Virus record (IMG/VR): IMGVR_UViG_2568526722_000002
Coordinates: 1 to 54,562 of that record
DNA length: 54,562 nucleotides
DNA from: a virus
Taxonomy: Duplodnaviria; Heunggongvirae; Uroviricota; Caudoviricetes
Reading direction: 5' to 3' (one strand)
A program made the position numbers and the translations under genes. Under the pieces are notes generated by a model that saw nothing but the letters and a program-made list of their open reading frames with translations, ran no database searches and was not told the DNA's origin. This document shows, piece by piece, positions 10,144-10,724 of the stretch (positions are counted from its first letter, which is position 1; every line of letters starts with the position of its first letter).

Positions 10144-10692
10144 TCAGCTAGCTGGAAACTTTTTATACAGAGTTGAGAGCCCTACTCCATACGTTTTTGA
10201 TACGCTTTGTCGTGATTCACCGGTTGCCATCCGCTCCCCCATTTCCCGCCATTGCTCATCCGTGAACTTAGGCCTGCGACCACCAACTCGCCATTTTGCC
10301 CTGGCTACGGCCAGCCCTGCTAAGGTACGTTCGCTATTAAGATCAGATTCATATTGTGCTGCGGAAAGGATGTTACGAAAGTTATAGCGGCCGCTGGCTG
10401 TTTTGAGATCCACGCCATCGGTAATACTGCGGAAGTTGATACCCTTTTCCTGTAACTGCTGGAACATCAACAGCGCATGCAGAACGTTGCGGCCTATCCT
10501 GTCCAGCTTCCAGACCACCAGTTCATCCCCCGGCTGCATAGTGGCGATCAGCCGTTTTAGAACCGGCCGATTCGATTTCCTCCCGCTGGCATGCTCTTCA
10601 AAAATTTTCTCACAACCCGCTGACTTGAGCGCCGTTAGTTGCAATTCAGTGTCCTGGTGGTTTGTTGATACTCGGGCATAACCGTAAATCAT
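10144..10692 (-). CDS. Hin/Gin/Pin-family DNA invertase
   Basis: 182 aa; MIYGYARVSTNHQDTELQ...LVVWKLDRIGRN...GINFRS...GLSTLYKKFPAS follows the Hin/Gin/Pin invertase sequence pattern closely. Confidence 0.9.
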   Translation of the reverse strand: MIYGYARVSTNHQDTELQLTALKSAGCEKIFEEHASGRKSNRPVLKRLIATMQPGDELVVWKLDRIGRNVLHALLMFQQLQEKGINFRSITDGVDLKTASGRYNFRNILSAAQYESDLNSERTLAGLAVARAKWRVGGRRPKFTDEQWREMGERMATGESRQSVSKTYGVGLSTLYKKFPAS

Positions 10693-10697
10693 GAGTG

Positions 10698-10724
10698 CTT
10701 CTCCTGTTGTAAAAACAGGAGAAG
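10698..10724. promoter_or_regulatory. perfect 10-bp inverted repeat directly upstream of the invertase start codon
   Basis: CTTCTCCTGT-(7 nt)-ACAGGAGAAG, ending a few bp from the invertase ATG; could be an operator or a recombination site. Confidence 0.3.

Follow-up and report, generated by a model that had tools for sequence, protein, structure and literature searches.

The stretch of phage DNA analysed here (54,562 nucleotides in full, hereafter the window) carries an invertase gene, pinL, bordered on one side by the att80 core at the 3' end of the host gene yciI and on the other by a leader hairpin, a single crossover site, a tail-fibre stump and a fragment of the host yecD-yecE region (Table 1). 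The stop codon of yciI lies at 10023-10025, and the other end of the window holds the gene of a tyrosine integrase (Int, 53369-54562) that is 100% identical to mEp237 Int over 397 aa. The att80 core at yciI and the mEp237-type Int at the opposite end identify pinL as the terminal gene of an att80-integrated prophage.

Table 1 Features at and around the pinL locus, numbered from the first letter of the window.
Feature	Position	Strand	Remarks
Second small serine recombinase	8382-8930	-	182 aa; PHROG 125; 31% identical to PinL; left of yciI
att80 core region, prophage/host junction	10004-10023	.	yciI 3' end; overlaps last yciI codons
Phage att arm between core and pinL 3' end	10024-10143	.	nearly invariant
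pinL	10144-10692	-	182-aa Gin/Hin/Pin-family serine DNA invertase; allele with G134W
Hairpin with 11-bp stem, 'IR3' of phi80	10698-10724	-	palindrome CTTCTCCTGTT-GTAAA-AACAGGAGAAG
26-bp crossover site, pix/gix-like	10752-10777	-	TTCTCCCAAACC-AA-CCTTTCAAATAT
Silent alternative tail-fibre C-terminus stump (Sv'-like)	10778-10889	+	~40 codons, frame of ORF 10769-10960
Host-derived yecD 3' end and yecE 5' stub	10890-11252	+	host yecD-yecE match; end of block common to phi80 and mEp237
UmuD-like gene	11384-11734		matches phrog_3469 profile positions 1-103 of 106
phrog_3893 gene	11701-11940		79 aa; profile match
LexA-type box	11960-11975		CTGTTTTTATATACAG; ~20 bp upstream of phrog_3893 gene
SGNH/GDSL-hydrolase fibre	13072-14916	-	
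Moron cassette	14925-16303	+	95-aa phrog_20491 gene and O-antigen acetyltransferase; between the two minus-strand fibre genes
Baseplate-adjacent tail fibre	16282-17067	-	unrelated to constant part of intact relatives' fibre

The nearest tail genes start at 12320, in agreement with the distance of ~1.6 kb from the invertase that had been given in the original prediction, and the yecD 3' fragment, the yecE 5' stub and the UmuD-like gene lie in between. The host-gene fragments that the prediction had named as separating the two are thus real (yecD' and yecE'), but what it took for the remnant of an SOS operon looks, from its gene content and its LexA-type box, like an intact LexA-controlled two-gene cassette. 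The equivalent place in phi80 is occupied by a LexA-boxed dinI homologue, and two more LexA-type boxes are found in the window at 41403 and 46028.

In a Pfam profile search, the N-terminal part of PinL matched Resolvase (PF00239, E=7.7e-38) and the C-terminal part HTH_7 (PF02796, E=1.5e-9, residues 138-181 of 182 aa). The closest solved structure is Gin (3UJ3, E=1.7e-55; 4M6F, E=4.2e-54), with gamma-delta resolvase far behind (E=4.7e-24), and the protein is assigned to PHROG 125 'DNA invertase' (E=1.6e-73). As the Gin structures score far above gamma-delta resolvase and the PHROG assignment agrees, the earlier label of a Hin/Gin/Pin-type invertase is correct. Sequence and cognate site together place PinL in the Din family of DNA invertases, the small serine recombinases Hin, Gin, Cin and Pin. 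It is 99.5% identical to the mEp237 invertase, 98.9% to phi80 PinL and likewise 98.9% to the HK225 invertase, and it shares 51% identity with Gin and 55% with PinE. The catalytic residues are intact, R7, S9, D64, R65 and R68 being invariant in an alignment with Gin and relatives.

Position 134, at the end of helix E, is Trp in the window and Gly in all eight other aligned recombinases (among them Gin and the distant second recombinase) as well as in the 11 other cluster members examined (11/11). The identical W134 protein is encoded on 335 contigs and is therefore a real allele. With a full-length reading frame, all catalytic residues and this many carriers, W134 PinL is not visibly decaying fast, which counts against regarding it as a relic. 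Whereas PinL of the window is full length, the phi80 gene has a change of TCA to TAA at codon 172, which costs the protein its last 11 residues and with them STLYKKFP, a stretch conserved in Gin. G134W and the phi80 stop, as two lesions that arose independently in orphan copies, would fit relaxed selection, albeit in a small sample. A promoter search of the minus strand upstream of pinL yielded nothing of the sigma-70 type. Invertases of the Din family have a recombinational enhancer, bound by Fis, in the 5' part of their gene; a heuristic scan for Fis sites, which used no curated Fis model, located the Gin pair 48 bp apart (centres 41 and 89). In pinL, a stretch picked out by eye (GAGAAAATTTTTGAA) resembles the second Gin Fis position although it falls below the threshold of this heuristic model, and the first position has no good match.

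The palindrome in the pinL leader was originally placed at the start codon and considered a candidate crossover site that lacks its partner. The palindrome is real and its two arms are perfect over 11 bp each, but 5 nt separate it from the ATG (10692-10690), and it encloses the Shine-Dalgarno sequence AGGAG (10701-10705, minus strand), which lies in the 3' arm of the hairpin on the pinL mRNA, 8 nt before the ATG. As a crossover site it was rejected: it is a hairpin annotated as IR3 in phi80, it is not gix/hix-like, and, being self-complementary, it needs no inverted partner. The actual site lies farther upstream, where it had been missed. The leader RNA has a folding energy of -27 kcal/mol (z=-4.2), a value reached by 0 of 200 shuffles. 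The hairpin is also kept in loci with intact segments (COL60J, SKA5, Omnitron and CUVET), and in COL60J and Omnitron its outer pair has changed from C-G to U-A, on both sides. A strong hairpin that sequesters the Shine-Dalgarno sequence distinguishes the PinL clade from the O157 pinE locus, where the leader forms a weaker fold containing this sequence, and from Mu gin, which has no equivalent of the palindrome. The hairpin has no Rfam match at E<=1 and no U-tract on either strand, and no intrinsic terminator was called at the pinL leader on the minus strand. Judged by these features, the hairpin would serve as a translational throttle that hides the ribosome-binding site and was probably inherited from functional ancestors; occlusion of the Shine-Dalgarno sequence would fit the need for very low invertase levels. 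Alternatively, the palindrome could act as DNA to which a protein binds, and not as RNA.

A scan of the window for 26-bp gix/hix-like sites recovered a single one, composed of two 12-bp half-sites and a 2-bp core (10764-10765) and located 72 bp upstream of the pinL ATG. With up to 3 mismatches allowed, the window contains this cognate site of the invertase once, against 0 matches expected by chance. A position weight matrix (PWM) built from seven sites, with two half-sites and with 20 shuffles as background, gave it 21.6 bits; the next best matches (46447-46472, 13.5 bits; 34837-34862, 13.0 bits) fell within the range of the top scores of the shuffles (9.9-16.7). The second, inverted site that would delimit a segment is absent: exact and 3-mismatch searches, a half-site search at 2 mismatches, an inverted-repeat search and the PWM with its shuffles found none above background in the 54.5-kb window. 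With one crossover site only, no inversion is possible in cis, and the assignment of PinL as an orphan in cis that has lost its invertible tail-fibre segment is supported by this sequence evidence. The original prediction of an orphan without an obvious invertible segment holds in this respect, but it had overlooked the relic of such a segment, one site and 40 codons, that abuts pinL. A relic of a constant fibre part was also considered in the baseplate-adjacent fibre gene and rejected, as this gene has no similarity to the COL60J fibre.

The surviving site has counterparts in intact switches. It is identical to the proximal site of SKA5, where it forms one half of an inverted pair, and near-identical sites form pairs in COL60J and Omnitron. 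Its inner 15 bp read TTGGTTTGGGAGAAG, and it matches TTGGTTTGGGAGAAGG, the functional repeat of the e14 P segment (PMC12529663), at 15 of 16 positions. In hundreds of tail-fibre genes of E. coli, homology to the window breaks at its positions 10759/10764.

What follows the site is a remnant of the lost segment. The stump begins directly at the crossover site and is 73% identical over 40 aa to residues 99-138 (of 215) of the SKA5 tail fibre. The phi80 record lists it as 'internal fragment, phage tail collar domain protein (pseudogene)', and the PGAP annotation of strain SZQ1 calls it 'phage tail protein, incomplete'; the stump and the yecD piece are both flagged as pseudogenes by PGAP in strains B18271 and SZQ1. 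The stump breaks off at 10889/10890, where the 3' end of host yecD takes over and leads into the opening bases of yecE. Window positions 10890-11212 have a match at the yecD-yecE locus in each of the 5426 E. coli genomes searched, the yecD fragment (10890-11120) covers positions 107-175 of 175 of the Pfam Isochorismatase profile, and phi80 carries the annotation 'N-terminal fragment DUF72 (pseudogene)' at the yecE' piece. The junction is identical in the window, B18271, phi80 and mEp237, and the same layout is annotated in SZQ1, which points to a single ancestral event.

An indication of where the host scrap came from is given by strain JNQH497. Its copy of the same prophage end, 99.6% identical to window 10899-13200, directly adjoins the real yecD and is inserted within the 5' end of yecE. 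This prophage end comprises the UmuD-like cassette, the SGNH/GDSL tail fibre, the O-acetyltransferase, YmfQ and baseplate J, and the scrap of the window (10890-11252) matches the flank of this yecE-integrated sister prophage (JNQH497 locus L011, 4656-5314). As the JNQH497 prophage end stands beside the real yecD, the yecD'-yecE' piece is best read as a fossil of aberrant excision; the match suggests a specialised-transduction-like event at the yecE site, the product of which now circulates in phi80-type phages.

Intact versions of the switch are found in several relatives. E. coli COL60J carries, at the same yciI site, a PinL variant that differs in one residue (Gly134) and adjoins a classic invertible segment, with a tail-fibre C-terminus and tfa on one strand, tfa and a fibre gene on the other, and baseplate genes beyond. 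Inverted site pairs with a spacing of 1.8-1.9 kb are found, each with two fibre C-termini and a pair of tfa genes, in COL60J (10606-10632 and 12555-12581 of its locus, L002), in SKA5 and in the Citrobacter phage Omnitron. COL60J and the window cease to be homologous at 10778, where the crossover site has its edge. SKA5 and strain CUVET18-1475, whose invertase and leader are 99.85% identical, contain the segment in opposite orientations with breakpoints at both sites, which is natural, if indirect, evidence that this type of site is recombined, the SKA5 site being identical to that of the window.

When the COL60J locus (invertase, segment and constant part of the fibre) was used as a query, 2695 of the 5426 E. 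coli genomes gave a partial match. The best-matching prophages, 99-99.9% identical, match exactly between the COL60J crossover cores (L002, 10613-12574) and have different flanks; the sites thus also act as module boundaries for horizontal exchange. In E. coli JX21CE8 (locus L014, 3446-3560), an SKA5-type invertase is found together with a proximal site that lacks its inner half, a directly abutting tfa and an stfP pseudogene. This locus appears to represent another route by which the same switch decays and is possibly a recombination product at the site.

The relic itself is shared with known phages. A block of 1246 bp (10007-11252) is 97.5% identical to phi80 and 99.1% to mEp237; DNA homology to both starts at 10007, and identity ends at 11252. 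The phi80 record (NC_021190, JX871397) annotates a 17-bp attP core (phi80 locus L003, 5673-5689) that maps to window positions 10004-10020, an IHF site in the att arm, and the same order as in the window of attP core, pinL, IR3, tail-collar pseudogene and DUF72 fragment; the phi80 genome was reportedly described by Rotman et al. in 2012. Among the window, COL60J, B18271, phi80 and mEp237, the att arm differs by one substitution, in COL60J. The order invertase-attP-int recurs in mEp237 and mEpX1, and the 1.25-kb block, the yciI 3' site and the Int type link the window to the modules of phi80, mEp237 and HK225 (97.5-99% identity for phi80 and mEp237). Given the collinear block, its location at the 3' end of yciI and an Int of the phi80 type at the opposite prophage end, the feature is to be classed as the already annotated PinL module of the phi80 family and not as a new system. 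A literature search on mEp237, HK225 and mEpX1 found nothing relevant.

The layout of the relic is identical in the window, B18271, SZQ1, phi80 and mEp237. At least 80% of pinL plus its leader is present in 74 of 5426 complete E. coli genomes, and the full relic including the yecD scrap in nine. The phages around it differ: SZQ1 matches window 10144-10889 at 100%, lacks the left-hand island and has a siphovirus tail, and the tail of phi80 is of the lambda-J siphovirus type, whereas the tail module that follows 11252 in the window is of the baseplate type and includes an SGNH tail fibre and an O-acetyltransferase. The att80-adjacent invertase of mEpX1 (locus L005, 3501-4049) is a chimera: over its first ~60 residues it departs from PinL, mostly in the direction of Gin, and over residues ~61-182 it is identical to the PinL consensus. 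The leader has no hairpin, the site has a GA core, and this invertase, too, is an orphan, as a search of 3.5 kb revealed no partner site.

These comparisons favour the view that PinL is a phi80-type invertase relic, left with a single site and a 40-codon stump by an old join and hitch-hiking with the att80 module (probability about 0.85). An ancestral PinL would have flipped a segment of ~1.9 kb between two inverted 26-bp sites and thereby swapped the C-terminal half of a tail fibre together with its assembly chaperone. An old illegitimate join would then have removed nearly the whole segment and the distal site, leaving pinL, the leader hairpin, the proximal site and 40 codons of a silent fibre variant fused to the yecD-yecE scrap, which probably derived from the aberrant excision of a prophage sitting at yecE. 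Physically tied to the att80 arm, the resulting 1.25-kb relic would travel with the phi80-type int/att module between different phages, and the prophage in which it would have come to rest here has early genes of the lambdoid kind, RecET and a tail of the baseplate type, its fibre bearing no relation to the one found in the intact relatives. The gene, left with one site, would be an orphan under relaxed constraint.

The systems of Mu (Gin and the G segment) and e14 (PinE and the P segment) belong to the same family and share with PinL the 12-2-12 architecture of the site as well as its position, where the constant part of a tail-fibre gene meets the variable part and the invertase gene follows directly downstream. 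Cin and the C segment of P1 form a tail-fibre inversion switch of the same kind. From these likenesses, the PinL module is taken to have been a switch of the Mu G/e14 P type. Unlike these switches, the window retains one site and 40 codons of one variable arm, and hence no switch. In status, the closest analogues of PinL are PinQ (Qin) and PinR (Rac) from cryptic prophages of E. coli K-12, which are likewise invertases without a working invertible segment of their own; this likeness is one of status and not of sequence comparison. By analogy, PinL could also act in trans. PinQ does so on e14 (PMC12529663), whereas no trans target or phenotype is known for PinL.

Such continued use is the alternative that survives best. 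PinL would in this case flip P/G-type tail-fibre segments with TTCTCCCAAACCAA half-sites in other resident prophages, and the flipped segments would alter the host range or give rise to fibre chimeras that block adsorption, as PinQ of Qin does on e14. PinQ, lacking a segment of its own, inverts the 1797-bp e14 P segment in trans, and this inversion blocks T2 adsorption (PMC12529663), which speaks for the idea. The near match of the window site to the e14 repeat, the TTCTCCCAAACCAA half-site shared with O157 pinE-type sites and the intact, widespread reading frame of PinL point in the same direction, as does the exchange of site-bounded segments among many E. coli prophages, given how many genomes match the COL60J query and that its best-listed matches span exactly the stretch between the sites. 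The window, however, holds no target. G134W at an otherwise invariant Gly and the loss of the STLYKKFP stretch in phi80 argue against sustained selection, and expression of PinL can only be presumed, the promoter scan upstream of the gene being empty. We therefore regard continued use in trans as unlikely.

The retention of pinL beside attP in at least four phi80-type phages (phi80, mEp237, HK225 and mEpX1) could reflect selection rather than hitch-hiking. Perhaps PinL owes its retention next to att80 to an action in trans, on the arrival of a phi80-type prophage, on the TTCTCCCAAACCAA sites of other, resident (cryptic) prophages, the hairpin being a valve that keeps its activity low until triggered. 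This extension, drawn by analogy with PinQ, is a speculative one and must be considered improbable. If it were true, a trans-acting PinL would extend the 'recombinase-activated defence' of PinQ and e14 to a mobile, phage-borne invertase.

Cin and Gin have been reported to use quasi-sites at low frequency, and PinL might accordingly recombine the one site it has left with some weak quasi-site, be it in the prophage or in the chromosome, resulting in rare large inversions or deletions. The half-lost proximal site abutting tfa in JX21CE8 is compatible with such a recombination product. The best secondary matches in the window are nevertheless no better than the shuffle tops, and no rearrangement at the site is seen among the window, B18271, SZQ1, phi80 and mEp237, which makes this a very improbable account. 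The least credible proposal, that PinL was co-opted as an accessory factor of att80 integration or excision, would account for the unchanging distance of ~120 bp between the gene and the core and for its place beside attP in each of phi80, mEp237, HK225 and mEpX1. But phi80, which encodes its own Int and Xis, is a fully viable temperate phage with a truncated PinL. Being linked to the att arm is enough to account for the position, no function being needed, and homologous invertases in SKA5 and in dusA-integrated prophages sit beside unrelated integrases, as they do because tail-fibre genes end the late operon.

As a decayed switch, pinL is of little importance in itself, and its orphan state is already contained in the phi80 GenBank record and in RefSeq pseudogene calls. 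The relic offers a clean worked example of how a tail-fibre switch breaks down and is afterwards carried by an integration module from one type of phage to other, unrelated ones, and its scrap of host DNA would be a surviving fossil of aberrant excision. Its value for future work lies in being a candidate for trans-acting invertase biology of the PinQ kind and in providing a natural G134W variant.

The prophage that now carries the relic combines lambdoid replication and RecET genes with a baseplate-type tail, and its tail-fibre region (12320-17067) is interrupted by the plus-strand moron cassette. To the left of yciI, the stretch 6500-9500 is AT-rich (37-43% GC) and densely filled with short repeats, and the second small serine recombinase is its only long reading frame. 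CTGAAAAGAGACTTCACAGA-like motifs occur there in direct orientation at 7133, 7227 and 9306 and inverted at 7691, 7808 and 8166, next to TATTTTTCAATAAGTTGTAAT repeats at 7095, 7190 and 9333, a palindrome with 22-bp arms at 8996-9052 and a GGT-rich run of 10-bp periodicity at 8028-8087. In the O55:H7 strain TB182A, this stretch belongs to an island of ~11 kb between tonB and yciI, which encodes a large serine recombinase of 506 aa at its tonB end.
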